Source: a virus
IMG/VR virus record: IMGVR_UViG_3300042691_041718
Coordinates: 96,001-160,000 of that record
Reading direction: 5' to 3' (one strand)
Length of the DNA stretch: 64,000 nucleotides
The position numbers were made by a program, and so were the translations under genes. Positions 27,947 to 45,397 of the stretch are shown piece by piece. Positions within the stretch are counted from its first letter, which is position 1. Each line of letters opens with the position of its first letter. Below the pieces are notes generated by a model. It did not search any database, was not told where the DNA came from, and was given only the letters and a program-made list of their open reading frames with translations.

Positions 27947-29227
27947 ATGGAGAGATTAAAAATTGGAATTACAATTGGATTGAGAGAAAATACAGAATCC
28001 ATTTGGAGTAATGGTATGAAACAAAATGTATTAGTTTTATATAGACTTTTAAAAAATTCTAAAAAAAACTATGATATATACTTATTGAATACTGTTAATA
28101 TTAATGATTGGACTGAAGAAAATTCAACAGATTTTGCCAAGGGTTCTTGTTTAAGAGTTGATAATGGTAATGGGGAAATTCTAATTCCCAAATATTTACA
28201 AGATATAAAGTTTCATAACTTTATTGATAAATATTTAGATATGGATATGTTGATTGTTATGGGTGCTCAAATATCAAATGCTGAAATAAAAAAATTTAAA
28301 CAGAATCCAAATAAAAAAGTTATTTCATATAAATGTGGTAACAACTATGTTATTACTATGGAAAATATTCTATTTAAAGAAGATGATCCCGGTAAATTAC
28401 ACCAATATGAAGATTCATATGATGAAGTTTGGTATATACCACAACAAGATGAAGTGAATCGAGGATACTATCATACATTGTATAGAACAAATTCATTAAT
28501 TGTTCCATTTGTTTGGCATAATCAATATCTATTAGAAGCTCTAACTGACATTGAAAGAGGATTTCAAAGAGGTCAATTCAAAAAAGATTATCGTTATCAA
28601 ATTGGTAAGGAAAAAAAGAGAATTGGTGTAATGGAACCAAATATAAATATTGTAAAATTTGCACTTATACCAACAATGATTACTGAAGAATCTTATAGAG
28701 GTGATATTGGTAGAAAACATATTGAAAAATTAATGTTGACAAACTCAGAGAAAATCAGCAAAAACAAAGAGTTTATGGGTATGATTTCAACTTTCGATTT
28801 ATATAAGGATGATAAAATCACAGCTGAGAGTAGATATCAAACAGCATTTATACTTTCACAATATATGGATATATTAGTTTGTCACCAAATACTAAATCCT
28901 CTGAATTATATTTACTTAGATGCAGCTTATATGGGTTATCCTGTTTTACATAATGCTCCTATGTGTAAGGATTTAGGTTATTATTATGAGGGATCCGATA
29001 CCGTTGAGGGTGCTAGACAATTAGATTATATCTTAACCGAACACGATAAAAATATTGATTCTTATAATGAAAGAAATGATAAGGTTTTAATGAGATATTA
29101 TGCTGATAATCCAAGACTTGTTAAAACATATGACATGCTTATCGAAAATTTATTCAATGGTGGTAATTATGGTTTAGAATATAACCCAAAAACAAATCTA
29201 TATAAAAATAAAAAAGCCACTAAATAG
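27947..29227 (+). CDS. DUF2827-like protein, probable GT-B glycosyltransferase fold
   Basis: KIGITI...SIWSNGMKQN, YKCGN, EPNIN..K, HQ..NPLNY.Y.D...GYP.LHN, LGYYY. Family recalled from memory. Confidence 0.7.
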   Translation: MERLKIGITIGLRENTESIWSNGMKQNVLVLYRLLKNSKKNYDIYLLNTVNINDWTEENSTDFAKGSCLRVDNGNGEILIPKYLQDIKFHNFIDKYLDMDMLIVMGAQISNAEIKKFKQNPNKKVISYKCGNNYVITMENILFKEDDPGKLHQYEDSYDEVWYIPQQDEVNRGYYHTLYRTNSLIVPFVWHNQYLLEALTDIERGFQRGQFKKDYRYQIGKEKKRIGVMEPNINIVKFALIPTMITEESYRGDIGRKHIEKLMLTNSEKISKNKEFMGMISTFDLYKDDKITAESRYQTAFILSQYMDILVCHQILNPLNYIYLDAAYMGYPVLHNAPMCKDLGYYYEGSDTVEGARQLDYILTEHDKNIDSYNERNDKVLMRYYADNPRLVKTYDMLIENLFNGGNYGLEYNPKTNLYKNKKATK

Positions 29228-29250: not shown

Positions 29251-29481
29251 TTAAAGTTGTAATATAGATTGAAAAAGAGAATCTGCAAATTCTCGTTCAA
29301 AAAATACATCACAAGCCTCTCTTCCATCATGCATGATTAAAGCTATTTGATATTGTTCTTCGTCTTTCATTTTAACTAGAGTAAGTACATCACCTTCATT
29401 TGATTCTGCAACTCTTAATAAATCAACGTCTTCTTCTGAGTCATATCCTGAAAAGACTTCTATAAATTTTAAGTTTTCCAT
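29251..29481 (-). CDS. Hypothetical protein
   Basis: Small acidic ORF downstream of the array. Confidence 0.55.
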   Translation of the reverse strand: MENLKFIEVFSGYDSEEDVDLLRVAESNEGDVLTLVKMKDEEQYQIALIMHDGREACDVFFEREFADSLFQSILQL

Positions 29482-29498
29482 ATTTTAATTTGTGTTTA

Positions 29499-29538
29499 AA
29501 AGACTCGCCTTTTTGACGAGTCTTTATTTATATATTAA
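29499..29538 (-). promoter_or_regulatory. Junction element: TATATAAATA followed by a hairpin
   Basis: Minus strand reads TAATATATAAAT-AAAGACTCGTC-AAAAA-GGCGAGTCTTT; the G-U pair supports minus-strand RNA folding. Confidence 0.75.
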
Positions 29539-32500
29539 AGTCCAAATCTTCCTCTTGAACTATTGAAGTTTTGTAGAACTTCAGTTGCTGATAAAGATCG
29601 ATTATAAACTTTACCTGAGTAAATATTACCTTTCCATAATTCAGGAAAAACACTTGATCCACTACCAATTCTCGCTTCAAAATTAGACCAGTTATTCATA
29701 TTATAAGAAGTTATATTTGATGTAGTTGATCCATCTAATACACCATTTCTATATAAGTAAATTTTATATACACCTGATTCTTTTTTGAATACTGCCGTAT
29801 AATTAACGATTGTGTTAAGAATATCAGCACCTGTTAATTGAGAAGAAACCCAGGTTTGCGTAAATCCAACAACATTAATATTTGCAAAAACTTTTCCAGA
29901 ATTTGAACCGCTTCTAAACTTCCAAAGAGAAATAGAATTTGTTTGGTTAGAAGATCCAAGAGTTATTATTTCATGATAAACATCCGAATTGTCCGTTACT
30001 TTAACCCAGAAGTCATATGTTATGTCTGTATCGTTAAACCTAAAGTTCGAACCCAAATTAACATAATCATTAACACCGTCGAATAATATAGAACCTCCAT
30101 TAGTAGAATCATAAGTTGGTCCATTAACTAAAGTACCATTATTACCGGCAGCTAAATCGAACCAAGTTGTTCCTGTTCCTGGATATGAGTTTGCATTACC
30201 TGCATCTAAATTAAGTACTAAACCGTTAGTGTTATAAACTGGAGTTCCAACTTGTCTTCCTAAAGCAGTTTGGAATTTTTGTACAATAGTTCTCATAGTA
30301 AGCGCATCTGTATCATTAAAGTTTTCTTGGAAATATACAATTGATAAATTTCTACTACTTAGATCTGATACCGCACCATTTTCACTTCTACCTCCTATAA
30401 GACATATTAAATTCACTGGATAATAAGCAAGTGATCTTGAATAAGATGTAGTATCTTTTAAAGTTTTAACCGTATTTGAATCTGTTCTATACGATTGGTA
30501 AAAACCTCTGGTGTCTGTATCTGCGAAACTAACAAAATCATCAGAGTTAACTCCACCAAATGTTGTAGTACTATTATGTGCAATTTGGAATGCTCTTACA
30601 GGGAAGTAACTAAGTGCACCAACATCAGTTGAAGAAATACTACTATTAGTAGTTGAATAAACACCTAATCCAGAAGCAATTGCAAAATTTACTGGGTTTA
30701 AAAACGTATTGGCATAACCTGTTGTACCATTTGGTTGAGCACCGCTAGATGTGTGAGTCCATCCGCCGTTAAACACCAATCTATATGCAGCATCCAAATC
30801 TCTAGGATCTTTTAAGTTCCATTTATGAGAAGTAGCGCTTCCGCCTACGAATGGATAAAGAGCTTTCATTTTAGTCCAGATACCAGCAGCTTTCAAATCA
30901 GTTACTAAAGTATTAACCGCAGAAGCTTGTTGAAAGCTAGTGATATTAGCCGCATTCAAGAAAGCTTGAGCATTTGTATCCGAAACTAATGGAACACTTA
31001 CTTGTCTACCTAAAGTAGTTTGGAATGTTTGTACTGCTGTGTAGAATGCTGCTGATTCTGCATCTGTTAGACCATCTCCGATTGAATAAAAAGCAGTTTC
31101 TTTATTGTCAAATCCAGAAGCCACTAATTCATTATTCCTTGCACCTATGTAGTAGTTTATTGTTGGTCTTTCGGTCACACCATTAGATGAATCAATAAGT
31201 ACTTTTACACCATCTTTCCATGCATTAACAGTAGTAGTTGAAATTCTATTACCCATCATTAAACCCCTGGTGTTATTAATAGGGCTGGTGAAAGGTGATA
31301 ATGAGGTATTGAAAATAATATTACCTAATGTTGTTCCATTAGGATTTGACATTAATAAATATCTTTGTGGGGAATTATTATCATTACATCCACCCATGAT
31401 AGCACTCACACTCCATGTAGTTCTACTATATGTAGAATGATGGAAACTACCTAGTGTTAATATAGATGATGGTACCAATTTAGTATCAGCATATGCTGTT
31501 GTACCATTAGGTAAAGCACCAGTTGAGCTATGGGTCCATCCACCATTGAATACTAACCTATAAGCTGCGTCTAAATCTCTCGGATCTTTTAAATTGAATT
31601 TATGAGATGTAGCCGTACCACCAACAAATGGATAAATAGCTTTCATTTTAGTCCATATACCGACTGCTTTCAAATCAATAACTAATGTATTGATAGCCAC
31701 CGCTTGATTTCCATCGGTAATTCCTGCCACAGTCAAGAAACTAACAGCATCTGCGTCACTAACATAAGGAGTTCCGACATGACGACCTAATGTTGTTTGA
31801 AATTTTTGAATTGATGTATATAGATTAGTAGTATCAGTATCACTCATACCGTCAGCTATAACTGAAAATGCAGTCTCTCTATTTGAATAATAATTAGCCC
31901 CACTTGGACTTCCCATCGCACCAATTGCTATATTTACCGAACCGGCAATCGTAGAATCTGCAGAACTTGTCAACACATTTCCATTTTTACCAAGTTTAGC
32001 ATTTGTACTCACTTTATTAGTCCAATACCAGCCTCTTGAATCTGCCTGTATACCACCGTCTAATAAAACAGAACTGTCTGAGTTTCTAGCAAGTATATTA
32101 TTATAAATTCCTGCTTTATACCAAGCAGATAGCCATGTCCATTTGCTCAAATCACTAGAACCCATATCTATCTGATCTGTTCCAGTATTACCATTAGTTA
32201 TTGAGTAATATCCTAAGAAAGGTGTTAAATTACTAGATGGATTATAAAAAGTATTAGCATAACCAGTTGTTCCATTAGGTTTAGCACCAGTCGATGCATG
32301 TGTCCATCCGCCATTAAATACTAATCTAAATGCAGCATCCAAATCTCTTGGATCCTTTAAGTTAAATTTATGTGAAGTTGCCGATCCACCGACAAATGGA
32401 TAAATAGCTTTCATTTTTGTCCATATTCCATATGTCTTTAAATCATTTACTAATGTATTGATAGCTGCAGCCTGTGTTAAATCTGTAATTCCTGCAGCCG

Positions 32501-32582
32501 AAATGAATGCTTGTGCATCTGCATCTACTGCATTGACTACCGAAGTAACAAAAGATCTCCAGCCAACTCTTGCTTGTGTCAT
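29535..32582 (-). CDS. Modular lectin-like tail or adhesin protein, architecture A-A-A-C (C is LamG/ConA-like)
   Basis: MTQARVGWR tag; three copies of DADA.AF..AAGIT...YPFVGG.ATSHK.NL; C-terminal NGLVLNLDAG...YNRSLSATEVLQNF. Confidence 0.7.
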   Translation of the reverse strand: MTQARVGWRSFVTSVVNAVDADAQAFISAAGITDLTQAAAINTLVNDLKTYGIWTKMKAIYPFVGGSATSHKFNLKDPRDLDAAFRLVFNGGWTHASTGAKPNGTTGYANTFYNPSSNLTPFLGYYSITNGNTGTDQIDMGSSDLSKWTWLSAWYKAGIYNNILARNSDSSVLLDGGIQADSRGWYWTNKVSTNAKLGKNGNVLTSSADSTIAGSVNIAIGAMGSPSGANYYSNRETAFSVIADGMSDTDTTNLYTSIQKFQTTLGRHVGTPYVSDADAVSFLTVAGITDGNQAVAINTLVIDLKAVGIWTKMKAIYPFVGGTATSHKFNLKDPRDLDAAYRLVFNGGWTHSSTGALPNGTTAYADTKLVPSSILTLGSFHHSTYSRTTWSVSAIMGGCNDNNSPQRYLLMSNPNGTTLGNIIFNTSLSPFTSPINNTRGLMMGNRISTTTVNAWKDGVKVLIDSSNGVTERPTINYYIGARNNELVASGFDNKETAFYSIGDGLTDAESAAFYTAVQTFQTTLGRQVSVPLVSDTNAQAFLNAANITSFQQASAVNTLVTDLKAAGIWTKMKALYPFVGGSATSHKWNLKDPRDLDAAYRLVFNGGWTHTSSGAQPNGTTGYANTFLNPVNFAIASGLGVYSTTNSSISSTDVGALSYFPVRAFQIAHNSTTTFGGVNSDDFVSFADTDTRGFYQSYRTDSNTVKTLKDTTSYSRSLAYYPVNLICLIGGRSENGAVSDLSSRNLSIVYFQENFNDTDALTMRTIVQKFQTALGRQVGTPVYNTNGLVLNLDAGNANSYPGTGTTWFDLAAGNNGTLVNGPTYDSTNGGSILFDGVNDYVNLGSNFRFNDTDITYDFWVKVTDNSDVYHEIITLGSSNQTNSISLWKFRSGSNSGKVFANINVVGFTQTWVSSQLTGADILNTIVNYTAVFKKESGVYKIYLYRNGVLDGSTTSNITSYNMNNWSNFEARIGSGSSVFPELWKGNIYSGKVYNRSLSATEVLQNFNSSRGRFGL

Positions 32583-32601
32583 TTAATTTTAATTTTTTTA
32601 A

Positions 32602-32639
32602 AGAGACTCGTCAAAATGACGAGTCTCTATTTATATATT
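32602..32639 (-). promoter_or_regulatory. Junction element: TATATAAATA followed by a 12-bp perfect hairpin
   Basis: agagactcgtca-aaa-tgacgagtctct at 32602-32628, with tatttata at 32628-32635. Confidence 0.8.
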
Positions 32640-35045
32640 TTAGTATACTGAGTAGTACGAGTTTATATTAGTATTAATTGCAGAATTATTGCTTAATTGC
32701 GATGTACTTCCATATATGATTAGTTCAGAGAAACCTGAACCACTTGTCAATCCATTACCCGCATCTCTTTTAAATATCACAACACCAGTAACAGCACCTC
32801 CGATATCATGTGCAAAATTAGTAACTAAATTAGCTCCATTCTCAAATACTGTAACGCCAGATGAGTTTTCATGTATGCTTATTAAATTAAATCCATTTGG
32901 TAATGCAGCAGCTGTAATCTCTTGTCCAGCGGAGTCATAGTATCTACCAGTTCCATTAGCATTTCTAGAAACGAAGTGTTGGTTAGAAGTACCTACTGAA
33001 GACATCATGGCCATCGCTCCTCTAGATGCATTTAATTTTATAGTTGCAAAAATAGAGTTAGTTGTCAGGTTCCAAGACGCCGAACTATTAATCATAAATG
33101 AACTTCCATCGGTTAGTATAACAGGTTTTGAATTTTGTGTATTTAAAACACCCGATAAAACTATACTTGGTTGATTTGTAGCAGTTGTTTGTGTTGCATG
33201 TTGATTATTTCCACTTTGGTCGTACCATGTAGTTACGAATCCATTACCACTACCAACAAATGCCAATAACGAAGTGGTATCTAAATTGCCATTTGCGTCA
33301 AACGAAATATCTTGTTCCAGATTATCAGAAGATCTTCTAACTCTAATAGCAAATCCATAATACCCAGTTCTTAATTTTCTTAATGAATATGCGGCAGCTG
33401 CACTTGAATAAGTATCTAATAAATTAGCAGTTTGACCAGATTCCAATACTGGAGTTCCAATTTGTCTTCCTAATGTTGTATTGAATTTTTGTACCGCAGT
33501 ATAGAATGCGGTAGCTTCAGCATCTGTTAAACCATCTCCAATTGACGCGAATGCTGATTCAAATGTAGAATAACCATAAATACCACTATTATATATTGCA
33601 GCACCTAGACCAACATTGTAATTAGGTTTAACTGTTATTGTTTCTGTTTTAGTACCAATAACGCTATTATTTATAATAGCTTTCTGAGTATTAGCTTCTT
33701 TTTTAATTATAAATAGTCCTCTAGTATCAGCAACTGGAGTATCAATTGGGTTAACAAAACCACCTAATCCAGCATATATATTAGGTGCTGCACCGTATAT
33801 ATCAATAGCATAATATCTTGAGTTTAATATATCATATGAACCTATCATGTAATTATCCTTACCACTACCAGGAATTACTGTTGTTCTTGAATAATATGAA
33901 AGGTGACTATTTGTACCGTCTAAGGCAGTGTTTACGTTTAATTTAGTGTCAGCATATGCTGTCGTACCATTTGGTTTAGCTCCGGTTGAACTGTGCGTCC
34001 ATCCACCATTAAATACCAATCTAAATGCAGCATCTAAATCTCTTGGATCTTTCAAGTTGAATTTATGTGTTGTTGCAGTTCCACCTACGAATGGATAAAT
34101 TGCCTTCATCTTAGTCCAAATACCAGCCGCTTTTAAATCAACAACTAATGTATTAACCGCAGTAGCTTGGCCTAAATCTGTAATACCTGCAGCATTCAAG
34201 AAAGCTTGAGCATCTGAATCTGATACAATCGGAGATCCAACATGACGACCTAATGTTGTTTGAAATTTTTGAATAGTCGTATAAAGGTTTGTTATATCAA
34301 TATCTGATAGTCCATTTCCAATATAAGTAAAAGATTTTTCCCTAGTTGAATATGAACCAACAGTACTACCTGAAAGTCTTATAGATATATTCGGGACAGA
34401 ACCAGACATTGCAGTAGTGGTGGTTCCCAATATAGAAGTATTTCGGAATATTTTCATCATAGTTGTTGATGTTCTTGATAAAGATATGAGACCAGCTGAA
34501 CTAGAATTAGTGACTACTATATTATATGGTACTGCATCTCTATAAATATATCCATATATTTTTCCATCCGACCATCTAGTATCAATACCAATACATTGAG
34601 TACCACTATTGTAAGCTGATATATCATTAGAATTTTCCATTATATCAGTTCTTGAATAAAAACCAAAAGCCATATCATATTCAGTTGGATAATTGGAAGA
34701 TGGTATTAATTTAGTATCTGCATATCCTGTAGTACCATTTCCTTTTATACCATTACTTGTATGTGTCCAACCACCATTAAATACTAATCTAAATGCAGCA
34801 TCTAAATCCCTCGGATCTTTTAAGTTGAATTTATGTGAAGTTGCAGATCCACCAACAAATGGATAAATAGCTTTCATTTTTGACCATATTCCATAGGTCT
34901 TTAAATCATTTACTAACGTATTGATAGCTGCTGCTTGAGTTAAGTTAGTAATTCCTGCAGCTGATATAAATGCTTGAGCATCTGCATCTACTGCATTGAC
35001 TACCGAAGTAACAAAAGCTCGCCATCCAACTCTTATTTGTGTCAT
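32640..35045 (-). CDS. Modular lectin-like tail or adhesin protein, architecture A-A-B
   Basis: MTQIRVGWR tag; two A modules; B module LLDTY..AAAAYSLRKL...VRRSSDN...NGFVTTWYDQSG (ConA-like, resembling the arabinofuranosidase-B catalytic-like family). Confidence 0.7.
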   Translation of the reverse strand: MTQIRVGWRAFVTSVVNAVDADAQAFISAAGITNLTQAAAINTLVNDLKTYGIWSKMKAIYPFVGGSATSHKFNLKDPRDLDAAFRLVFNGGWTHTSNGIKGNGTTGYADTKLIPSSNYPTEYDMAFGFYSRTDIMENSNDISAYNSGTQCIGIDTRWSDGKIYGYIYRDAVPYNIVVTNSSSAGLISLSRTSTTMMKIFRNTSILGTTTTAMSGSVPNISIRLSGSTVGSYSTREKSFTYIGNGLSDIDITNLYTTIQKFQTTLGRHVGSPIVSDSDAQAFLNAAGITDLGQATAVNTLVVDLKAAGIWTKMKAIYPFVGGTATTHKFNLKDPRDLDAAFRLVFNGGWTHSSTGAKPNGTTAYADTKLNVNTALDGTNSHLSYYSRTTVIPGSGKDNYMIGSYDILNSRYYAIDIYGAAPNIYAGLGGFVNPIDTPVADTRGLFIIKKEANTQKAIINNSVIGTKTETITVKPNYNVGLGAAIYNSGIYGYSTFESAFASIGDGLTDAEATAFYTAVQKFNTTLGRQIGTPVLESGQTANLLDTYSSAAAAYSLRKLRTGYYGFAIRVRRSSDNLEQDISFDANGNLDTTSLLAFVGSGNGFVTTWYDQSGNNQHATQTTATNQPSIVLSGVLNTQNSKPVILTDGSSFMINSSASWNLTTNSIFATIKLNASRGAMAMMSSVGTSNQHFVSRNANGTGRYYDSAGQEITAAALPNGFNLISIHENSSGVTVFENGANLVTNFAHDIGGAVTGVVIFKRDAGNGLTSGSGFSELIIYGSTSQLSNNSAINTNINSYYSVY

Positions 35046-35064
35046 ATTTTTTTTATTTTTTAAA

Positions 35065-35100
35065 AAAGACTCGCCCTTTGACGAGTCTTTATTTATATAG
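35065..35100 (-). promoter_or_regulatory. Junction element: TATATAAATA followed by a hairpin
   Basis: aaagactcg-ccctttga-cgagtcttt at 35065-35090, with tatttata at 35090-35097. Confidence 0.8.
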
Positions 35101-35101
35101 T

Positions 35102-36583
35102 TTAGTATACTGAATAATAAGTATTCATGTTATCTTGAATATCTAATCTAGTACTTGACTTATCTGAATTCCAGAAAATAACCTCTTGAATATCCCCATC
35201 AAACTCATTCAAAAAATAAGGAGTTCCAGATGCAGCACCTATTGATATACCTCTTAATTCGATATTTCCCAGAGCGGTAGAATTAATACCTCCATTATTA
35301 ACAGATATTTTTGAATTCGATCCATCATAAAGCATAAACTTGATATTGTTATTAGTATTTGCATTTAATAATGAATAAAGATATCCACTAGTATATATTG
35401 AAAATTTACCATTTGTAATGGAATCTAAATAATTAGGGCTATATACTGAATACAAATCACCACCAACAGCCACTCTATTGCCAGTATCGTTATATCTAGT
35501 AACAGTAAAAAGTGATACAGGTTTTGTTATAGTAAACGATCCGTAAGGATATCTAAGTATTCTACCTCTATATGATGTATCCCCTCCTATGCTACTTCCG
35601 TATGAATTTAAACCAGTCGTGAACTTTTTCAAAGTTGCTTTACCATTATTCTTTAGCATAGCCCCTTCCCATACTATATACGGCTGATTTGCAGCAGTAG
35701 GTTGTGAAGCGTGTCTACTATTTCCACTCTGGTCATACCATGTTACTATAAAACCGTTACCTGCAGACCCAACTGTTGTTTTAGCATAAGGTTGTATAGT
35801 TTTTCCAGAAACATTATTTAAAGTACCTGTGACTTGCATACCCCAGATATAATATTTAGCACCAGTATCACCGGTAAAAGAGAAATTTCCATTATTACTA
35901 CCGTTCCTGAAAATGTTTATCGGAAATTTATTTGCAGTTCTACCAGCAAGAACATCTCCACTCATAGAACATCTCCACCAACCGTTTCCTTCATCAGTCA
36001 TCGCTGCGCCAGTTATGTTTATACCAGAAGAATTAAAAATATAAGTAGTTCCTGTATCTAAATTGAACTCAACATATCCCCAAGAACCATTAAGGTCTTC
36101 CTTTGCTATAATTTTATTATTAGTTGATGTATTTCCAGGAGCTTTCTTAATATAGAAACTCGCGTTCCAGTTATATCCAGTAGGTAAAGTAGTGTTTGGA
36201 TAATATCTATACATATAATGGTTACCTGATCCACTATTCTCTGAATAAAGATCAGCTGTCTGTGTTCCGTCAGGAGCAGTTCCCTGATCTGCAGTTATCG
36301 TAACACCAGACTTAGCATATACTGCATTAGTAAAATCTTGTGAATATGATAATTGATTGTATGCTCCGACGAAATTCATTAATGTAGTTTCATCTAGAAC
36401 ATTATTTAAAAAAGGTATATCCATTTCTGTATTATCTCCACTTCTTCTTACTCTAATGCATGCACCAGTGTAATTAGTATTTAATTTTCTAAAGGAGTAT
36501 GCTGCTAAAGAATTTGGAAATAGATCTAGTAGAAGAGCAGATTGATCTACGTATGTTCTCCATCCAACTTTTGTTTGTGTCAT
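35102..36583 (-). CDS. Modular lectin-like protein: B module with an inserted ~200-aa D domain
   Basis: MTQTKVGWR tag; insert with APDGTQTAD, GNGWWRCS and YIWGMQ between FVG and NGFIVTWYDQSG. Confidence 0.7.
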   Translation of the reverse strand: MTQTKVGWRTYVDQSALLLDLFPNSLAAYSFRKLNTNYTGACIRVRRSGDNTEMDIPFLNNVLDETTLMNFVGAYNQLSYSQDFTNAVYAKSGVTITADQGTAPDGTQTADLYSENSGSGNHYMYRYYPNTTLPTGYNWNASFYIKKAPGNTSTNNKIIAKEDLNGSWGYVEFNLDTGTTYIFNSSGINITGAAMTDEGNGWWRCSMSGDVLAGRTANKFPINIFRNGSNNGNFSFTGDTGAKYYIWGMQVTGTLNNVSGKTIQPYAKTTVGSAGNGFIVTWYDQSGNSRHASQPTAANQPYIVWEGAMLKNNGKATLKKFTTGLNSYGSSIGGDTSYRGRILRYPYGSFTITKPVSLFTVTRYNDTGNRVAVGGDLYSVYSPNYLDSITNGKFSIYTSGYLYSLLNANTNNNIKFMLYDGSNSKISVNNGGINSTALGNIELRGISIGAASGTPYFLNEFDGDIQEVIFWNSDKSSTRLDIQDNMNTYYSVY

Positions 36584-36602
36584 AGTTTTTTTTTATTTTT
36601 TA

Positions 36603-36624
36603 AAAGACCTCCGAAGAGGTCTTT
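36603..36624 (-). terminator. Hairpin with a C(UUCG)G tetraloop on the minus strand
   Basis: Minus strand reads AAAGACCTC-TTCG-GAGGTCTTTT. Confidence 0.85.
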
Positions 36625-36626
36625 AT

Positions 36627-36854
36627 TTATGGATTTACATCTCCAGGAAGCTCAACTTGAACCGGATTGTGATCGATTTCTGGTAAATCATGAACCCATT
36701 CAGTTACTCCTCCATGTGTACATTGATTAACTTCCTCATTTGAGATAAACCAATTTCCATCAGCATCTAATGTTGGGTTGAAGAATTGAATTCCATCATA
36801 AGTTTGACCAACTAATAGGTCTTTTTGTTCTTGTGTTAAAAGTCTTACTTTCAT
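36627..36854 (-). CDS. Small acidic array-associated protein, family X copy 1
   Basis: LT.EQKD.LVGQ..DG..FFNPTLDADGNWFIS.EEV shared with 36909..37133. Confidence 0.75.
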   Translation of the reverse strand: MKVRLLTQEQKDLLVGQTYDGIQFFNPTLDADGNWFISNEEVNQCTHGGVTEWVHDLPEIDHNPVQVELPGDVNP

Positions 36855-36882
36855 CGTTTATTACTTATTTTTTATTTTTTAG

Positions 36883-36906
36883 AAAAGACCTCATAAGAGG
36901 TCTTTT
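36883..36906 (-). terminator. Hairpin of the same family as 36603-36624
   Basis: aaaagacctc-ataa-gaggtctttt. Confidence 0.8.
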
Positions 36907-36908
36907 AT

Positions 36909-37133
36909 TTATTCGGTTACTTCTCCCGGAAGTTCAGCAATGATCGGATTGTGAGGAATCTCAACCAACTCAGAAATCCAAGCGAATTCAGTTCCTGTAT
37001 ATCCTTGAACTTCTTCGATAGAGATAAACCAGTTACCGTCTGCATCTAAAGTTGGGTTGAAGAAAGTTTCACCATCCCATTTTTGACCAACTAATTGATC
37101 TTTTTGTTCTAAAGTTAATTTATAGACTTTCAT
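36909..37133 (-). CDS. Small acidic array-associated protein, family X copy 2
   Basis: Paralog of 36627..36854. Confidence 0.75.
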   Translation of the reverse strand: MKVYKLTLEQKDQLVGQKWDGETFFNPTLDADGNWFISIEEVQGYTGTEFAWISELVEIPHNPIIAELPGEVTE

Positions 37134-37149
37134 AATATTTTATTTTTTT

Positions 37150-37371
37150 TTATTTTAATTCTGGTTGAGTAATTTCAAATTCAATTGGGGCACCTAATAT
37201 TGTCTCAATAGATTCGTCAAATGTGATGTACCAAAATCCATCTAATTCAGCATTTTGATAATCTACCCAGTGTTGAGTAACACATCCTTCTTTCGGATAT
37301 CCGAAATGGGTGTCGCATTGTGTTCTAGCAGCAATTGCTTCTGCTTCTGTCATAAATTTGTAACCTTTCAT
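37150..37371 (-). CDS. Small array-associated protein, family Y copy 1
   Basis: GYK..TE.EAI.AR...ELDGF.YI...LG.PIEFE.TQPE shared with 40587..40808. Confidence 0.75.
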   Translation of the reverse strand: MKGYKFMTEAEAIAARTQCDTHFGYPKEGCVTQHWVDYQNAELDGFWYITFDESIETILGAPIEFEITQPELK

Positions 37372-37422
37372 GTTAATTTATTTTTTTATTTTATTTATCA
37401 TAAAACTATAATTATGATAATT

Positions 37423-39054
37423 TTATACGTTGTATCTAACTCTTCCAGCATTGAAGTTTTGTAAAACTTCCGCTGCAGAAAGTTCTCGGTCATATATATG
37501 CATTGCTCCAAGAATACCTCTACCTGAACTTGTAGATGTAGCCGAATTAACACCCCATCCAGCATTTGATGCTCTAAGTCCAGAACATGTCATTGTATTT
37601 GTTGCCTGTAACACACCATTTACATACATTTTAACATACGAATTTGGCTTCCAAACTACATAAACATTATACCAAACATCAGATTGTACAGTTGTTGTTG
37701 ATTGAAATGTTCCTGAAATTGAACCAGACGTTGGAACAATGTTAATACCGAATTTAGAACCAATAGACATACTCAGAATAAAACTCCATCCACCACCATA
37801 AGAATCATGTCCTCTTGTTATAGCATAAAAACCATTATGTCTTGAAGAAACTTTAAACCATCCACCTACCGTAAATGTACCTGTATCAGATCCTTTATAA
37901 AGTGTTTGTAAATAATCCGGCGAAGTACCAGATTGATACAGCTTAGTACCACCCGCAGTGTTATCAGAATTTCGAAATCTAAGTTCAGGTATACCCAAAT
38001 CAGATTTATTATATTCTATAAAACGATTTTGCCAATCATATTGATTTAATCTAATTACTGTACCATTATTACTATTACCACTACTATCAACCAATACATC
38101 ATTTTGATAGTAATATAATCCTGGTAGGTCAGATGTTAATGATCTTTCATTTGGTGGAGTTTGATTTTGAGCATCAATATTAATTTTTAAACCATTTGTA
38201 ACTAATACATCGGTTGATGTATTAGTATTAATTGTTAATGGTGCAATAGAAGTTCCAATTTGTCTTGATAGAGATGAATTAAATCTTTGAACTGCGATAT
38301 ACATTAAATATGATTCCATCGTATTTAAAGCACTTGTTATATAAGCAGTTGAATATCTATTCGTTGAAGAAGAAGATCCAATTTTTACAGTTGAATTCGG
38401 ATTTATTTTAGTTGTCGCAACTGTCTGTCTAGCACCTTGAACCTCTAAACCATCTTTAAACCAACAAAAATATGTAGTATTATATCTTTTTAATTCATTT
38501 AAACCAGTAACAGTTGTTGGACTAATATAAAATGAAAACCAATCATGTGATGGAATACTTCTAAAAAACATTAAAGTTGGACTCGAAACAAAAGAATCTA
38601 TTGAACCGTTTGTAGAATCATACGCTGAAATATCAGATCTAAATCCTCTAACATTGGAAGATTGGATCGGATTATCATTTATATAAATACCAAAATTATG
38701 TTCGGTACTATTTGCACCAAAAGCGCTTCTTAAATTTAATTGAGTATCAGCAATTGTGTTTGATCCATTTGATTTAACACCATTTGAATCATGAATCCAA
38801 CCGCCACTAAATGTTAAACTGTATATTTGTGTGTTAACTAAATTTAATCTATGAGATTCAGCATTTCCACCAACGAAAGGATAGAAAGCCTTTATTTTAG
38901 TCCAAAGACCATATCTTTTCAGATCTTTAACTAAAGTGTTAACTGCGGATTTTTGAGTTGTATCAGTAAGACCTGCAGCTAATGAAAAGGCTGTAGCGTC
39001 AGTATCTAGTCCTAAATCAACATAAGGTCTCCAACCTACTTTAATTTGTGTCAT
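37423..39054 (-). CDS. Modular lectin-like protein, architecture A-C
   Basis: MTQIKVGWR tag; A module; TNGLKINIDA...YDRELSAAEVLQNFN LamG-like domain. Confidence 0.7.
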   Translation of the reverse strand: MTQIKVGWRPYVDLGLDTDATAFSLAAGLTDTTQKSAVNTLVKDLKRYGLWTKIKAFYPFVGGNAESHRLNLVNTQIYSLTFSGGWIHDSNGVKSNGSNTIADTQLNLRSAFGANSTEHNFGIYINDNPIQSSNVRGFRSDISAYDSTNGSIDSFVSSPTLMFFRSIPSHDWFSFYISPTTVTGLNELKRYNTTYFCWFKDGLEVQGARQTVATTKINPNSTVKIGSSSSTNRYSTAYITSALNTMESYLMYIAVQRFNSSLSRQIGTSIAPLTINTNTSTDVLVTNGLKINIDAQNQTPPNERSLTSDLPGLYYYQNDVLVDSSGNSNNGTVIRLNQYDWQNRFIEYNKSDLGIPELRFRNSDNTAGGTKLYQSGTSPDYLQTLYKGSDTGTFTVGGWFKVSSRHNGFYAITRGHDSYGGGWSFILSMSIGSKFGINIVPTSGSISGTFQSTTTVQSDVWYNVYVVWKPNSYVKMYVNGVLQATNTMTCSGLRASNAGWGVNSATSTSSGRGILGAMHIYDRELSAAEVLQNFNAGRVRYNV

Positions 39055-39070
39055 AGTTTTTTATTATTTT

Positions 39071-40570
39071 TTAGTATATTGAATAGAATGAATTAATACT
39101 TGATTCAATGATATTTCTATCAGAACTCACATCACCATTAAATAACACCATTTCTGATGCATAAAATTGACCGGAATTACTTAAACCTAATTGTAGACCT
39201 TTCCAATTCGTAGTTGTAAGATTTTTACTATATGTTGAACCATTCTTACCAACTTTAGCACTATTTGAAGATATATTCATAAAATGTAGTGTTTGGTTTG
39301 TATCTACAATATCTTCTCCGTTAATTAAATTATTGTCAGCTGTATATAGAGTATAAGCATATCTTCCTAAACCAATAAAATATCTTATCCAGTAATTCCT
39401 ATTGTTTTCTAATCCAGACAGTATTGGGAAGTCGTAGATACTTCCATATATTTTCATATTTATGAATATGCTAAATGGTCTATTTAATGTTATCGAATTT
39501 AATGGTAAACCTAACCATTTTCTAGTAGTTCCAGAAAAAAGAAAAGAAAGAGTAGGTTTTCCATTTAGAGCTATCAATGTGCTATCTTCAATAATTGATG
39601 GCTGATTTGCAGAAGTTGTTTGTGATATATTCATATTATTACCCGACTGGTCATACCATATTGATACAAACCCAGAACCAGGAAGAGTATTAGTAGTTTT
39701 AGAATATGGTTTTAATTCTTGATAACTATCATCATCATTTTTAAGAGTTATTTGTAACCCCCACAATAAATACTTACCATTCACATTACCATTCCAAGTT
39801 TGTCCATAACTAGGTGCGTTTACAATTGGAACACCACCATTGGTAGTTGCTGGAACTCTACCTATTGCTATAGGTGTTTTTGTTGATTGACTTTCAGTAC
39901 CAGTTTTTGGTGGTCTTTTTCCCCACATAGAACATCTCCACCAACCATTACCTTCATCAGACATAGAAGCACCTAAAACTCCTAATGAACCTCCAAAAAT
40001 ATTAAGGTCAGCAATATAATCAACATTACCAGTTTCTAAATTAAAAACTACAGTTGAACCACCACTTGAATTACCACTTCTTTGTTGACGGAGCATTATT
40101 TTATTTTCAGTAAGTGTATTATCTGGTGATTTCTTAACATAAAAACTCATATTCCAACTACCCCCTACGAGAAGACCACTCTGAACATCTTCCCTATAGA
40201 AATAATGGTCCGTTGTTGTTGCTGTTTCAGTAAATAAATCAGCAGTTTGTGTACCATCTGGTGCTATACCAGCATTAGGTGTTATAGTAACTCCGTTTTT
40301 TGACCAGTACGCATTATCTAGGTCTTCTGAATAATAAAATTTATTATTTGAACCAACGAATGTTGTTAATGCTACCGTATCCAAATTACCATCATTATCA
40401 AAACCAATGTCTTGTGATTGATTATCACTGGACCTTCTAACTCTGACTGCCGGTCCTGTATAAGATCCATTTAATTTTCTCAGTGAGTATGCAGCAGCCG
40501 AACCCCCACTATAGATGTCTAATAAGTAAGGACTTACGTACTTTCTCCAGCCTACTCTTGATTGTGTCAT
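39071..40570 (-). CDS. Modular lectin-like protein, B module with D insert
   Basis: MTQSRVGWR tag; AAAYSLRKL, APDGTQTAD, GNGWWRCS and WYDQSG. Confidence 0.7.
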   Translation of the reverse strand: MTQSRVGWRKYVSPYLLDIYSGGSAAAYSLRKLNGSYTGPAVRVRRSSDNQSQDIGFDNDGNLDTVALTTFVGSNNKFYYSEDLDNAYWSKNGVTITPNAGIAPDGTQTADLFTETATTTDHYFYREDVQSGLLVGGSWNMSFYVKKSPDNTLTENKIMLRQQRSGNSSGGSTVVFNLETGNVDYIADLNIFGGSLGVLGASMSDEGNGWWRCSMWGKRPPKTGTESQSTKTPIAIGRVPATTNGGVPIVNAPSYGQTWNGNVNGKYLLWGLQITLKNDDDSYQELKPYSKTTNTLPGSGFVSIWYDQSGNNMNISQTTSANQPSIIEDSTLIALNGKPTLSFLFSGTTRKWLGLPLNSITLNRPFSIFINMKIYGSIYDFPILSGLENNRNYWIRYFIGLGRYAYTLYTADNNLINGEDIVDTNQTLHFMNISSNSAKVGKNGSTYSKNLTTTNWKGLQLGLSNSGQFYASEMVLFNGDVSSDRNIIESSINSFYSIY

Positions 40571-40586
40571 AGTTTTTTATTATTTT

Positions 40587-40808
40587 TTAATTTATCTCCG
40601 GTTGAGTAACCTCGAATTCAATTGGTTCTCCTAAGACTTGTTCTAAACCTTCTACATGTTGAATGTAGTAGAACCCATCTAATTCTGAATGGTTGTAGTT
40701 TACCCAATATAAGGTATCACCAGTTGGGTTTGGTAAACCCATATAAGTAGCGGCTTGACTTCTTGCCATAATTGCTTCTTCTTCTGTTGTGTATTTATAT
40801 CCTGTCAT
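40587..40808 (-). CDS. Small array-associated protein, family Y copy 2
   Basis: Paralog of 37150..37371. Confidence 0.75.
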   Translation of the reverse strand: MTGYKYTTEEEAIMARSQAATYMGLPNPTGDTLYWVNYNHSELDGFYYIQHVEGLEQVLGEPIEFEVTQPEIN

Positions 40809-40824
40809 AATTTATTTTATTTTT

Positions 40825-42327
40825 TTAGTAGATTGAGTAGTATGAGTTTATGTTTGATGAGATACCTGTTCGGTTAGATGATTGGTCAACATTATAATAA
40901 GCCACTATTTCTTGTATGTTACCTTTTAATTTAAAGTTTGTACCTATTTCATCAGCACCTATTGATAACGGTTGTGTAAATGTTGGTAGTGATGTGTTAG
41001 TTGTACCATCAAAACTCATAGTTTCTTGTACGTTATTTCTATAACTCTTTATACGTAAAGCACTTGTAACGTTTAATAAATCGGTTTGTTGTTCGTAAAG
41101 ATATTGAGTGTTAATATTATATACACCAAAATCATAAGTTTTACTAGTTGTTACATCTCTCACTGACATAATTGACCTTGCATTACTACGGTACCCAGAA
41201 AAATATACAGACATGTTGAATTGTTTAAAATGTCCTATTACTTGAGATGTTATGTTATTTGTTTCAATACTTGACACATGTGCTACATATACTTTATCAG
41301 TACTAGTAAATGGATAATTACTTGTAACTAAAAAGTCGTTCGAACCATCAAATTTTATTGTTGGTTTACCATTTGTAGTTATTAATGAACCATTACTTAC
41401 TATTTGAGGTTGACTGGCAGATGCTTGTTGGGAAGCGTCATATGTTGATGATTGGTCATACCATATGGATACGAATCCATTACCAGCTGTAGTTGTTGTT
41501 GTAGTTTTTGTATATGGTTGTGTTGTTAATACTGACGTATCGTTTAACGCTTTTTGAAATTGATAACCCCATATGTAAATGTTTGATTGTACGTTACCAG
41601 GGTATAGTGAAGTATTGAGCGTATTTAAATTATTATTAAATCTAATTACACCTACTTGAGAACGGTTTCCAGTTACTGTTACTGTACCCCACACTGAACA
41701 TCTCCACCAACCATTTCCAGCATCAACAATTGATGAACCAAAATTAGCATCATTAGATGCGTTCGAACTATCTAATACAGTACCTGATGATATATTAAAT
41801 AGAACACAAGGAAGTGAAAAAACATTCCCCGTTGGGCTAGGAAATCCCAGAATAATTGTATCAGGTGCCGATGTTCCTGGTCCTTTTTTAACGTATACAC
41901 TCACATTCCAACTTGTTCCAACAGCAAACGATAAAGATGTAGCGTTGTATAATGTGTGATAATTATTAGCTGTGCTTTCTGCTAATAAATCGGCAGTCAT
42001 TGTACCATCAGGTGCCGTTGTTTGATTTGAGGTAATGGTTGTAATATATTTACTCCAATAAACATTATCAAATTCCTCAGAATATAATGCTTGGTTATTT
42101 GCACCGACAAAATTCAACATCGATGTTGTATCTAAATTACCATTTGCATCGAATCCGATGTCTTGGGATGTATTGTCAGACGAACGTCTAACACGAATTG
42201 CACTACCAGCGTATGCGTTTCTTAGTTTACGTAATGAGTAAGCTGCTGCCGCTCCATTATAAGTGTCTAAAAGGTATGATACTGGTTGTAAATTACCTGA
42301 CCTCCATCCAACTTTTGTTTGTGTCAT
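40825..42327 (-). CDS. Modular lectin-like protein, B module with D insert
   Basis: MTQTKVGWR tag; AAAAYSLRKL, APDGTMTAD, GNGWWRCS and WYDQS. Confidence 0.7.
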   Translation of the reverse strand: MTQTKVGWRSGNLQPVSYLLDTYNGAAAAYSLRKLRNAYAGSAIRVRRSSDNTSQDIGFDANGNLDTTSMLNFVGANNQALYSEEFDNVYWSKYITTITSNQTTAPDGTMTADLLAESTANNYHTLYNATSLSFAVGTSWNVSVYVKKGPGTSAPDTIILGFPSPTGNVFSLPCVLFNISSGTVLDSSNASNDANFGSSIVDAGNGWWRCSVWGTVTVTGNRSQVGVIRFNNNLNTLNTSLYPGNVQSNIYIWGYQFQKALNDTSVLTTQPYTKTTTTTTAGNGFVSIWYDQSSTYDASQQASASQPQIVSNGSLITTNGKPTIKFDGSNDFLVTSNYPFTSTDKVYVAHVSSIETNNITSQVIGHFKQFNMSVYFSGYRSNARSIMSVRDVTTSKTYDFGVYNINTQYLYEQQTDLLNVTSALRIKSYRNNVQETMSFDGTTNTSLPTFTQPLSIGADEIGTNFKLKGNIQEIVAYYNVDQSSNRTGISSNINSYYSIY

Positions 42328-42348
42328 TATTTTTTATTTATTTTTTAG

Positions 42349-42380: not shown

Positions 42381-42391
42381 ATTTTTTATTT

Positions 42392-44983
42392 TTAAATTAA
42401 TCCATAAACACCATAAGCTCTAACTTTTGATCCATTATCTGGAGCAATTTCAAAAGTTACGGATTCTACTTTGTTATCGATATCAAAGTTAGGAGTATAA
42501 TCTCCACTATCTTGTAATAGACCGTTAACATAGATTAACTCAGATCCACTTCTAACTGGAACACTCAATGTAAATGTTGTAATAATACCATTAGCAGATT
42601 CAACAATACTTACGTGTTTAGCATATATAGTTTCTAAGTCGTAAGCAATAGAAGCTTCTGCAGACTCAGCTCTTGAAATTTCTGAATCTAAGTTATCAAC
42701 AACCTCAGCAAATGAGTCAATTGAAGTTAAGTCAGTGTTAGCAATAATGTAAGATACCTCAGTCGATAATACCGTAGCAATAGATCCCTCAGCAGCAGTA
42801 GCTCTCGAAATCTCAGCAGATAATGCACTATCTAGGGAATTATCAGCAGAAACTCTATTAGAAACTTCAGAAGATAAATCAGCACCTAATAAATTAGATA
42901 AAGATAACTCAGCTGATGTTGCTCTTGAAATTTCCGAAGAAAGACCAGTAGCAATTGAGTTATCAGCAGCTAATCTAATAGAAGCCTCAGCTGTATCAGC
43001 AGATGTTCTAGCAACTAATTCAGAAGAAAGATCAGCAGCTATTGATACATCACCAAGAACTCTTAAAGAAGCCTCTGTTGAAACCGCATCTGCTCTGTTA
43101 ACTAATTCGGAAGAAAGATCAGCAGCTATTGAATTGTCAGCAGAAATTCTATTTGATAATTCAGTGGATAATGCAGCATCGTTTGATAATACATAAGATG
43201 CAAATGCTTGATCATTGGTTGTATCAACAGAGTTAATTAATGAAACAATTTCAGCAAATGAGTCTTTATCAGCATCTGAAGCTAATAAAATAGCATCAAT
43301 TCGATCTTTTTCTATAGAAAGCTTAGTATCTAAAGAGGCATCACCAGCAACTCTTAAAGAGGTTTCAGTAGAAACCGCAGATGCTCTAGCAACTAATTCA
43401 GAAGAAAGACCAGCAGCTATTGAATTATCAGCAGAAGCTCTAGCAACTAATTCAGAAGAAAGACCAGCAGCTATTGAATTATCAGCAACTAATCTTGTAG
43501 AAGCCTCAGTAGAAATTTGAGCACTTGTATAAGCCTTAGTAACTAAAGATAAATCACCAAATCCAGCTAATGAAGCTGGTTGAGCAGCAACGTTAATTAA
43601 ACCAGAGAAAGTACGAGTGCCACTTGCAGGCGCACCAACCGATTCCATCAATCTAACTGTGTTAGTAGTAGCATCAACCTCAATTGTAGAACCATCAGTC
43701 ATTGGAAAAGAGTTTATAACAGAAGCATCAGCAGAAATTCTAGCAACTAATTCAGCAGATAAGTTAGCAGCAATTGAAGCATCAGCAGAAGCTCTAGCAA
43801 CTAATTCAGAAGAAAGACCAGCAGCAATTGAGTTATCAGCAGAAGCTCTAGCAACTAATTCAGAAGAAAGACCAGCAGCTATTGAATTATCAGCAGCTAA
43901 TCTAATAGAAGCCTCAGCTGTATCAGCAGAAGCTCTAGCAACTAATTCAGAAGAAAGACCAGCAGCTATTGAATTATCAGCAGCTAATCTAATAGAAGCC
44001 TCAGCAGATAAATCGGATGAGTTATTAACATTTAAATTACTAATTAAAGTAGCTAAAGATGAATCACCAGCAACTCTATTAGACAACTCAGTTGATAAAT
44101 TTAAAGTTAACGAAAGCTCAGAGGATTCAGCTCTTGCTTGCTCAGCATCAACATCAGAAATACGAGCTTCAACTTCAGAAGAAAGATCTAAAGCAATAGA
44201 AGTATCTCCGGAAATCCTAGCTACGATTTCAGATGAGATAGCAGCAGCTCTATCAACTAATTCAGTTGATAAGTTAGCAGCTATTGAATCATCTGCAGCT
44301 AATCTTGTAGAAGCCTCAGCAGCGATTGCATTACTAGCTGATCCAGATAATAATGTGATGGCATTATTCATATCACTATCAGCATTTTGGAATGCAGTAA
44401 CGATTTCAGTTAAAGAGTCAATAGCTGAAGGATCTGTATTAGAAATAACAAAATCAACTTTTGTATTCAATGAAGCTTCTGCTTCAATTGCTCTAGATGC
44501 TTCTGAACTTAAATCTGTTGCTAATGATAATTCAGCAGCTTCGGCTCTTGATTGTTCAGCATCAACATCAGCTAATCTAGCTGAAGATTCGATCGAAATG
44601 TTGTTTTGTAAAGATTGTTCAGCAACGATTCTAGTAGAAATCTCAGCAGACATAGCAGCAGTTACAGATAAATCCGCAATATCTCTATAATTTGCTTCAT
44701 CAGCTAATGCGTTTTCTAAAGATAAATCACCAACAACTCTTAAAGATGCTTCAGAAGAAACAGCAGCAGTTCTTAAAGATTCCTCATTTGATAATGCAGT
44801 TTGTAAAGATAAATCACTGGAAACTCTTAAAGAAGCTTCAACACTCTCTTTAGTATCGATAGATGCGATAGTTGAAACCAATCCATTAATATCATCAATA
44901 ACGATACCAACAGGAGCGGTAATCTGTGCGTTGTCCAATATTAAATCGGACTGTCTATTTAATACAATTTTTGTACTTGACAT
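42392..44983 (-). CDS. Long repetitive coiled-coil fiber or shaft protein (863 aa) with a C-terminal beta domain
   Basis: Repeats of AEASIRLAADN-SIAAGLS-SELVARASADN; C-terminal TFTL...SELIYVNGLLQDSGDY...VTFEIAP. Confidence 0.7.
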   Translation of the reverse strand: MSSTKIVLNRQSDLILDNAQITAPVGIVIDDINGLVSTIASIDTKESVEASLRVSSDLSLQTALSNEESLRTAAVSSEASLRVVGDLSLENALADEANYRDIADLSVTAAMSAEISTRIVAEQSLQNNISIESSARLADVDAEQSRAEAAELSLATDLSSEASRAIEAEASLNTKVDFVISNTDPSAIDSLTEIVTAFQNADSDMNNAITLLSGSASNAIAAEASTRLAADDSIAANLSTELVDRAAAISSEIVARISGDTSIALDLSSEVEARISDVDAEQARAESSELSLTLNLSTELSNRVAGDSSLATLISNLNVNNSSDLSAEASIRLAADNSIAAGLSSELVARASADTAEASIRLAADNSIAAGLSSELVARASADNSIAAGLSSELVARASADASIAANLSAELVARISADASVINSFPMTDGSTIEVDATTNTVRLMESVGAPASGTRTFSGLINVAAQPASLAGFGDLSLVTKAYTSAQISTEASTRLVADNSIAAGLSSELVARASADNSIAAGLSSELVARASAVSTETSLRVAGDASLDTKLSIEKDRIDAILLASDADKDSFAEIVSLINSVDTTNDQAFASYVLSNDAALSTELSNRISADNSIAADLSSELVNRADAVSTEASLRVLGDVSIAADLSSELVARTSADTAEASIRLAADNSIATGLSSEISRATSAELSLSNLLGADLSSEVSNRVSADNSLDSALSAEISRATAAEGSIATVLSTEVSYIIANTDLTSIDSFAEVVDNLDSEISRAESAEASIAYDLETIYAKHVSIVESANGIITTFTLSVPVRSGSELIYVNGLLQDSGDYTPNFDIDNKVESVTFEIAPDNGSKVRAYGVYGLI
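43383..43487. repeat. 54-bp tandem repeat unit, recurring at about 43785-44000
   Basis: gctctagcaactaattcagaagaaagaccagcagctattgaattatcagcagaa is repeated. Confidence 0.85.
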
Positions 44984-45166: not shown

Positions 45167-45397
45167 TTACATATTGTATAATAAATTTTTTATATTTTTT
45201 ATAGAATTTGAATAATTTAATGGATCACAAGAACCATTTTCAGTTAAATACTCATTCACAACATCCATTAGATCAGGAGTTTGAATAAATATAAAGTTTG
45301 ATTTGGATTTTACTTTTTCAACTATAAATTTGAATCCTTTTATTTTTAAATATGCTGTTAAATATAAATCCGATGTTGTGTATTTTTTTTCGTCCAT
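45167..45397 (-). CDS. Small protein resembling DUF5659
   Basis: YTTSDLYLTAYLKIKGF...FIF motif. Family recalled from memory. Confidence 0.5.
   Translation of the reverse strand: MDEKKYTTSDLYLTAYLKIKGFKFIVEKVKSKSNFIFIQTPDLMDVVNEYLTENGSCDPLNYSNSIKNIKNLLYNM

Follow-up and report, generated by a model that had tools for sequence, protein, structure and literature searches.

Introduction

Co-oriented arrays of host-recognition genes with a common attachment element are known from phages CBA120 (TSP1-4) and G7C (gp63.1/gp66), whose branched tailspikes attach by folded domains of tens to hundreds of residues. Phages K1E, K1-5 and SP6 use conserved docking peptides of 7–11 residues (PMC6872550), and Klebsiella phages of the KP32, KP34, Menlow and PhiK64-1 groups have group-specific docking peptides, with experimental validation reported in 2026 (PMC13352976). 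Such peptides, of 7–11 aa and longer, go together with several receptor-binding proteins (RBPs) per virion and with modular exchange (PMC6872550; PMC13352976). In the head spike of the Rhodobacter gene transfer agent RcGTA, one flexible Rcc01080 (GhsB) subunit stands on a pentameric base of Rcc01079 and binds capsule polysaccharide (PMC7296036; PDB 6TB9/6TBA). Order is confined to residues 2–10 of Rcc01080 (I-A-L-G-L-G-L-G-L), which form a five-point star inside the pentameric base (PMC7296036). Herein, we analyzed a 64,000-nt stretch of viral DNA (the window), which is the minus strand of bases 96159–160158 of a 191,442-bp IMG/VR virus record with a CheckV completeness of 73% and a GC content of about 27%. 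Six genes of this window begin with the peptide MTQ-x-[RK]-VGWR (the tag); positions are given in window coordinates. We consider it reasonably probable that the first 9–12 residues of the encoded proteins act as a portable docking peptide at the N-terminus of exchangeable adhesin heads.

Six Co-oriented Genes with a Common Start

The tag is the start of six co-oriented minus-strand open reading frames (ORFs) within 29535–42327. These ORFs encode p1015 (29535..32582, 1015 aa, MTQARVGWR, tag-A-A-A-C), p801 (32640..35045, 801 aa, MTQIRVGWR, tag-A-A-B with B lacking the D insertion), p493 (35102..36583, 493 aa, MTQTKVGWR, tag-B[D]), p543 (37423..39054, 543 aa, MTQIKVGWR, tag-A-C), p499 (39071..40570, 499 aa, MTQSRVGWR, tag-B[D]), and p500 (40825..42327, 500 aa, MTQTKVGWR, tag-B[D]). 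The domain sets were obtained by all-against-all BLASTP, in which A-first and B-first proteins had no detectable similarity besides the tag. The 27 nt coding for the tag of p500 lie at 42301..42327 on the minus strand, and the other five tag-coding stretches, on the same strand, at 40544–40570, 39028–39054, 36557–36583, 35019–35045, and 32556–32582. Tag position 5 is always R or K, and [FY]-V follows at positions 11–12 in 5/6 of the proteins.

A degenerate DNA pattern for M-T-Q-x-x-V-G-W-R found 6 sites in the window, which are the six genes, and 0 in 100 shuffles. Scanning the whole 191,442-bp record with the same pattern returned only those six sites. A 26-bp string is identical at 36558–36583 (p493) and 42302–42327 (p500), and copies with 3 mismatches lie at 32557–32582 and 35020–35045. 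An A-rich leader directly upstream of each tagged ATG is also common to all at the DNA level. In these respects the preliminary description was borne out: the ORFs and the pattern search gave the six co-oriented genes with the MTQxxVGWR start, the 26-bp identity was found where it had been reported, and the all-against-all BLASTP reproduced its domain sets. Across IMG/VR, the exact MTQxxVGWR DNA pattern was matched only twice. One match was inside a tape-measure-like ORF and the other on an unrelated high-GC contig, and both were set aside as chance-like.

The Tag as a Family-Wide N-Terminal Motif

Among the best 120 homologs of p500, 118 were full-length proteins, and 80/118 carried [VILF]-G-[WVIFY]-[RKF] within their first 26 residues, against an estimated chance rate of about 1%. 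Aligned on the Gly, the motif reads G(-5) Q(-4) x [RK](-2) [VIL](-1) G [WVIF](+1) [RK](+2), with Q at -4 in 66/80, R/K at -2 in 75/80, and R/K at +2 in 79/80 proteins; P/S-Y/G-V often comes next. Homologs of the A-C protein carried the motif in 51/77 cases and in the same variant classes as the p500 homologs, with tags such as MTQIKVGWRPYVD, MAYINSNNQIRVGVRPWVD, MATQSVRIGWRTYV, MPQVRVGWRPYVD, and MANIINxFGQIKLGWR. LamG-first proteins were likewise tagged. A megablast search against cultured phages gave no match.

In 197 proteins (124,572 residues), the strict motif occurred 103 times at the protein start and 1 time internally, and this sole internal case directly follows an internal Met, that is, a miscalled start. 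Since the tagged multidomain proteins have many internal junctions without the motif, it is not a generic linker. As aligned here, the window's MTQx[RK]VGWR is the form that one lineage has of a motif present throughout the family, (G)-Q-x-[RK]-[VIL]-G-[WVIF]-[RK], and the range of proteins that carry it indicates that the tag is portable, sitting on the unrelated bodies A, B, C, and LamG. An origin of the tag as a leftover of the interdomain connector LGRQVGTP was also considered and rejected. A-only proteins end in ...TTLGRQV, so the LGRQV segment is the C-terminal helix of A. The connector idea is also contradicted by the differing R/Q order and by the tag motif never being internal.

Genome-Specific Variants and Selection on the Peptide

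Tag variants differed between genomes and recurred within them. Two variants were found on six genes each, MAYTNLLGQVRVGVR (x6) and MANIINQYGQVKLGVR (x6). On a 38-kb NCBI metagenome contig (L010), MA[YW][TI]N..GQ.R.GVR is the tag of six co-oriented genes, one of which diverges more. An 83-kb, 23% complete genome (L024, the same as L132; record G001) has exactly six tags, all MANIINQYGQVKLG[VI][RQ], on the single-domain bodies C, B, B, LamG, A, and A. In L013, two genes are tagged MATQSRVGWKPYVNLA, unrelated to MATFITSK (an N-terminus treated below), while L009 carries MNIYGQVGWR and MGLLINGQVGWR and L012 carries MTQIRIGWR. Bodies 66–80% identical to p500 were found with different tags (MTYFNEFGQGRVGFR, MPTQTKVGWR, MAIYSNGQVGWF, and MAWTNILGQSRVGIR), and in these pairs similarity starts at LLDTY, the beginning of domain B. 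One variant per genome, together with like bodies bearing different tags, indicates that the tag tracks the genome and that the body moves between genomes.

The six window copies use 2, 3, and 3 different codons for the core V, G, and R, with one amino acid each. Codon differences in the V-G-W-R core are synonymous only in the window, and L024 and L010 are alike in this. Synonymous-only core differences point to constraint on the peptide rather than on the DNA and to copies that are not recent conversions. By this codon usage, the tag is under purifying selection at the amino acid level. The preliminary description had held that a functional tag should be present in homologs of related phages and be under purifying selection rather than a duplication remnant, and both the homolog counts (80/118 and 51/77) and the synonymous core changes agreed with it.

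Lectin-Type Bodies and the Inserted Domain D

The AlphaFold2 model of p500 had a mean predicted local distance difference test (pLDDT) score of 76, with domain B at residues 17–77 + 283–499 and domain D inserted at 78–280. Domain B matched the concanavalin-like sandwich of the GH54 type (1wd3_A, Z 23.8, root-mean-square deviation 2.8, 260 residues aligned). The GH54 alpha-L-arabinofuranosidase catalytic domain (PF09206) scored 20.5 and 17.7 bits on B, below the 25-bit gathering cutoff, and these subthreshold matches cover the N-terminal part of the catalytic domain only. Domain D of p500 is structurally like the peripheral domain of the baseplate wedges Pa193 gp46 (Z 19) and E217 gp45 (Z 17.7). 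A p500-family profile searched against the Protein Data Bank (PDB) matched the RcGTA head-spike fiber Rcc01080 (6tb9_F3) with E 3.5e-30 over residues 78–267, and E217 gp45 and Pa193 gp46 with E of about 1e-11. The Rcc01080 homology concerns the three B[D] proteins only (p493, p499, and p500).

For p543, the model had a pLDDT of 82 and a predicted template modeling score of 0.83, with A at about 44–266 and C at 281–543, both lectin-type jelly rolls. Its matches at Z 16–18 to AbnA domain 4, GH54, and the lectin-like halves of clostridial Hc-type receptor-binding domains are similarities of fold only. Its C module matched Pfam Laminin_G_3 (PF13385) at residues 380–530 with 54.7 bits against a 27.6 cutoff. 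The concanavalin-like sandwich is thus the fold of A, B, and C alike, and D is inserted into B. PHROGs families matched by the tagged proteins are labeled "tail protein" and "virion structural protein". Coiled coils, beta-helices, and known anchor domains were absent from the p500 and p543 models, in line with the preliminary description, to which no trimeric shaft or baseplate-anchor domain was evident. Fold and homology support the bodies being adhesin-like glycan-binding heads, with glycan binding as their predicted function. The tag lies outside both folds and may be disordered: pLDDT is <50 over residues 1–16 (p500) and 1–14 (p543), compared with 76–82 for the bodies, low pLDDT being weak evidence of disorder.

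An A-type module also occurs in the cultured Flavobacterium phage FL-1 (L138, KY421186.2), in a 384-aa protein encoded at 6590–7744, directly after the portal gene. This module is 41% identical to p543 residues 16–129 and lies behind a larger N-terminal domain, without a short tag.

Comparison with Described Docking Systems

The RcGTA fiber is the closest known case, since the body of this fiber and domain D of p493, p499, and p500 are homologs. In RcGTA, the fiber is held solely by its N-terminal peptide of about 9 residues, and by analogy a tag of about 9 residues may have the same role here. The two peptides differ in design. The RcGTA peptide offers five hydrophobic residues for five pockets, whereas the tag has a single phi-G-phi with basic flanks and a Q before it. 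RcGTA has one fiber gene for a small gene transfer agent particle, whereas here six genes with different bodies belong to a huge phage. The RcGTA-type hydrophobic-Gly repeat is not found in the window tags. Distant homologs do start with RcGTA-like hydrophobic-Gly repeats (MWNGIGIGIGR, MIGIGNAISIGLRR, and MFGIGVGIRVGGR). Further short N-terminal classes lie directly before B or A (MILxTHGIIASS, MKLG..VKIG..KVYLGSNLVW, and MRRLRLQMMAGGQ), one of them on three genes of a single contig (L017).

As in the RBPs of K1-5, SP6, and the Klebsiella phages, a short N-terminal peptide is common to proteins with differing remainders. In those phages, the RBPs are trimers of the beta-helix depolymerase type and attach to an adapter protein or a T4gp10-like branching domain, whereas the bodies here are tandem concanavalin-like sandwiches that appear monomer-like, with no beta-helix matches for the AlphaFold2 models. 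The K1-5/SP6/Klebsiella peptide (e.g., MALxxLV) is unrelated in sequence to the window tag. Unlike the folded modules of CBA120 and G7C, the tag is a peptide of 9–12 residues that is predicted to be disordered. It also differs from T4-type capsid-targeting leaders (about 10 residues, with a prohead-protease site L/I-x-E), as the conserved tag has no Glu. The literature searched contained neither a Q-x-[RK]-V-G-W-R-type motif nor the use of one on arrayed monomer-like lectin bodies. The specific motif thus appears undescribed, and the docking mechanism itself appears already known. The novelty claimed in the preliminary description therefore held for the motif; short docking peptides as such have precedent in K1E/K1-5/SP6, Klebsiella phages, and RcGTA.

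Neighboring Genes and Genomic Context

A Ser/Ala-rich repeat fibrous protein of 863 aa is encoded just upstream of the array (42392..44983, minus strand). It has a conserved N-terminus, a central knot, and a C-terminal beta-domain of about 75 aa, and is made of repeats of about 18 residues (LSSELVARASADNSIAAG type), broken by the nonrepeat knot PMTD..TIEVDATTNTVRL...GFGDLSL.TKAY. Upstream of the fibrous gene, its conserved neighbor encodes a 76-aa DUF5659 protein (45167..45397, minus strand), and a 188-aa protein is encoded at 45478..46044 (minus strand). About 68 aa at the C-terminus of the 188-aa protein make up a domain that recurs at the end of the fibrous protein and, as a tandem-repeat module, is widespread (1724 library matches). 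Consisting of an N-domain and this module, the 188-aa protein is not an obvious docking platform and was set aside as such. Neither the fibrous nor the 188-aa protein, termini alone included, had a meaningful match in PDB sequences or Pfam. On the other side of the array, a DUF2827 gene (27947..29227, plus strand) is paired with a 185-aa ORF (27384–27941); among the relatives inspected, this opposite-strand gene marks the end of the variable slot.

The locus order was a 163–188-aa protein, DUF5659, the fibrous protein (650–1540 aa), the variable slot, and the opposite-strand DUF2827 gene with the ORF of about 185 aa. The window, L012, and L024 all had this order, as did most of the other IMG/VR loci inspected (loci L096–L135). 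The fibrous gene was found on 42 IMG/VR contigs, with class-I tags downstream on 2/42 only (L123 and L132 = L024); in all, class-I tagged genes adjoin it in 4 genomes (the window, L012, L024, and L123). The slot of the other inspected fibrous loci held leucine-rich repeat (LRR)-type proteins in 7/9 cases, and these have their own conserved N-termini, MATFITSK...GYWKYNH or ..KLRVKGV... Genes for a family-25 glycosyltransferase, an APS kinase, and two sulfotransferases lie in the L098 slot as well (16394–18707). The slots of L120 and L135 contain glycosyltransferases only, those of L135 (19146–21527) being several DXD-motif glycosyltransferases, and the L096 slot has other genes. The slot transferases and the ever-present DUF2827 gene raise the possibility that the phage glycosylates or sulfates the Ser-rich fiber.

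Two families of conserved, small, acidic proteins (about 73 aa) are encoded among the tagged genes. X has 73 aa (40587..40808, minus strand; second copy 37150–37371), and Y has 74 aa (36909..37133, minus strand; second copy 36627–36854). X follows B-type tagged genes in L024, L009, and L013, and Y follows A-, C-, and LamG-type genes in L024 and L009 (L024 9438–15920; L009 11476–11697 and 15990–16202). Both are absent from the L010 array, and no function was found for either in Pfam, PHROG, or Atlas. Their distribution suggests that X and Y are body-specific assembly chaperones or partner subunits.

Six genes of the window have an A-rich leader of some 20 nt immediately before the ATG, preceded by a G+C-rich hairpin with a T-run after it, and no Shine-Dalgarno sequence. 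They comprise 4/6 tagged genes, the Y copy at 36627–36854, and a 76-aa ORF (29251–29481), and the intergenic stretches are 29482–29534, 32583–32639, 35046–35101, 36584–36626, 36855–36908, and 42328–42391. By this arrangement, each of these genes resembles an autonomous cassette whose leader is very short. A TAAAAAATAA-like upstream leader was dropped as a sign of co-regulation, as 55/238 ORFs match it at ≤1 mismatch in this AT-rich genome. The virus is a huge, low-GC phage, probably with a Bacteroidota host; the A-rich leaders without Shine-Dalgarno sequences and the nearest cultured matches in Nonlabens and Flavobacterium phages are compatible with such a host.

Elsewhere in the window, giant ORFs at 8925–14378 and 14416–18951 encode proteins of 1817 and 1511 aa without a PHROG match, and both have a proprotein-convertase P-domain match (PF01483, E 5e-10 and 2e-8). 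In a search of the 191-kb record, which is 73% complete, Gp23 (PF07068) matched only a 58-aa open frame outside the window (G000:C1:11203–11352), and no major capsid gene of the T4 type was detected at full length.

Proposed Docking and Its Alternatives

In the mechanism that we propose, the six genes would encode monomer-like appendage proteins built of the concanavalin-type lectin modules A, B, and C. Their unstructured tag would become ordered only on plugging into one shared acceptor site of the virion. Binding heads could be added, lost, or swapped between phages with the attachment chemistry unchanged, and an incoming head would acquire the resident tag. The preliminary description had proposed such a docking strand for interchangeable glycan-binding heads at one virion site. 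Its docking element gains support from conservation in about 130 homologs, N-terminal position, portability, genome-specific variants, synonymous-only changes, predicted disorder, and the RcGTA fiber homolog. Presence of the tagged proteins in the virion, docking by the tag, and its docking partner are points that we infer.

For the acceptor, the preliminary description had pointed to the tip of the fibrous protein or the capsid. The C-terminal beta-domain of the fibrous protein may be considered a weak candidate. Its gene is adjacent to tagged genes in the 4 genomes named above, but about 33 of about 37 full-length fibrous-gene loci have no class-I tag within 6 kb downstream, and in the 8 of these that were inspected this stretch contains LRR, glycosyltransferase, sulfotransferase, or other genes. 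The fibrous protein is a conserved neighbor of a hypervariable surface-interaction slot and is not specifically linked to the tag. A conserved fiber beside a hypervariable slot fits a stalk-plus-heads arrangement. There was a hint that the four tag-associated fibers have in common a longer loop and an extension at the C-terminus beyond YGVYG; it comes from n = 4 and is confounded by relatedness. In one complete relative, an extra domain of about 210 aa is joined to the fiber C-terminus via a Gly/Pro/Tyr-rich linker, and this fused domain suggests that the C-terminal tip of the fiber is the seat of heads. A symmetric capsid, neck, or baseplate oligomer is the other acceptor candidate, by analogy with RcGTA.

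Several observations weigh against docking, beyond the many fibrous-gene loci without tags. The T4 gp9/gp10 domain (PF07880) was unmatched in the 191-kb record, which is 73% complete and in which a distant domain could be missed. The array has SbcC, methyltransferase, primase, and homing endonuclease genes as neighbors and lies outside any recognizable tail module; the tagged genes of L009 and L013 lie among ribonucleotide reductase, DnaB, and other nonstructural genes. The tblastn matches in Nonlabens and Flavobacterium phages have no tag, and no tagged cultured phage was found. Three relatives at least 96% complete gave no B[D] homolog in a search without a positive control. Gene conversion could account for part of the tag's uniformity inside a genome, and the predicted disorder carries little weight.

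Other explanations were compared with docking. The N-terminal peptides might bind one another, as a beta-annulus or bundle, and so form homo- or hetero-oligomeric lectin "bouquets" with no separate acceptor. One variant common to all copies of a genome would be expected if the copies pair, the R-phi-G-phi-R core is pseudopalindromic, and the bodies have no visible shaft or oligomerization domain. However, L012 shows a single tagged gene, though its contig ends 489 bases downstream, and the two tagged genes of L009 are about 3 kb apart with five unrelated genes between them. A bouquet would still need attachment to the virion, and RcGTA, the closest solved analogue, uses a hetero-acceptor. We regard self-assembly as rather unlikely. 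It is unlikely, too, that the tag is an assembly or processing signal, read by a chaperone (e.g., X/Y), a protease, or a sorting step, and not the final attachment element. The X and Y genes stand among the tagged genes and follow the type of body, but they do not correlate with the universal tag, and the L010 array does without them. The tag has no T4-type L/I-x-E cleavage motif, and lectin heads would be improbable internal cargo.

The nonstructural genomic context in several genomes would also be consistent with soluble or cell-associated lectins or glycosidases made during infection, in which the common start serves translation initiation from the very short A-rich leaders or another intracellular role. 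The hairpin and A-rich leader before 4/6 tagged genes and the ATG-ACA-CAA invariant at the DNA level in the window fit such a role. Nevertheless, what is conserved is the amino acid motif, its codons changing synonymously, and it persists in phages that differ in their leaders and have 0–12 extra residues at the N-terminus; the bodies are homologous to proven virion fibers and baseplate domains. This makes a nonvirion role quite improbable. A functionless remnant of duplication or gene conversion was already disfavored and seems very improbable. It would account for 26 identical bp between paralogs (p493 and p500) only 36% identical overall and for homogeneous tags within each genome, but not for a motif kept on nonhomologous bodies and conserved in about 130 proteins on many contigs whose bodies are 35–80% identical. 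The motif is never internal, and its core differences are synonymous only.

Implications

If the tag does serve in docking, it would provide a minimal handle of 9–16 residues by which any binding module could be mounted on the particles of large phages, and a sequence signature for metagenomic host-recognition genes scattered outside tail modules. A broader reading, which we put forward tentatively and think doubtful, is that huge aquatic phages in general use the Q-x-R-V-G-W-R family as a portable address peptide, with one acceptor, perhaps the Ser-rich fiber tip, that takes any of up to six or seven different monomeric lectin or adhesin heads. Were this true, virions would be mosaic, with a receptor repertoire set by cassette exchange, and heads would move between lineages and take the resident tag. 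The symmetry-mismatch star-peptide principle of RcGTA would extend to large phages. Docking by the tag would account for the many adhesins that huge environmental phages carry and for the exchange of these adhesins.

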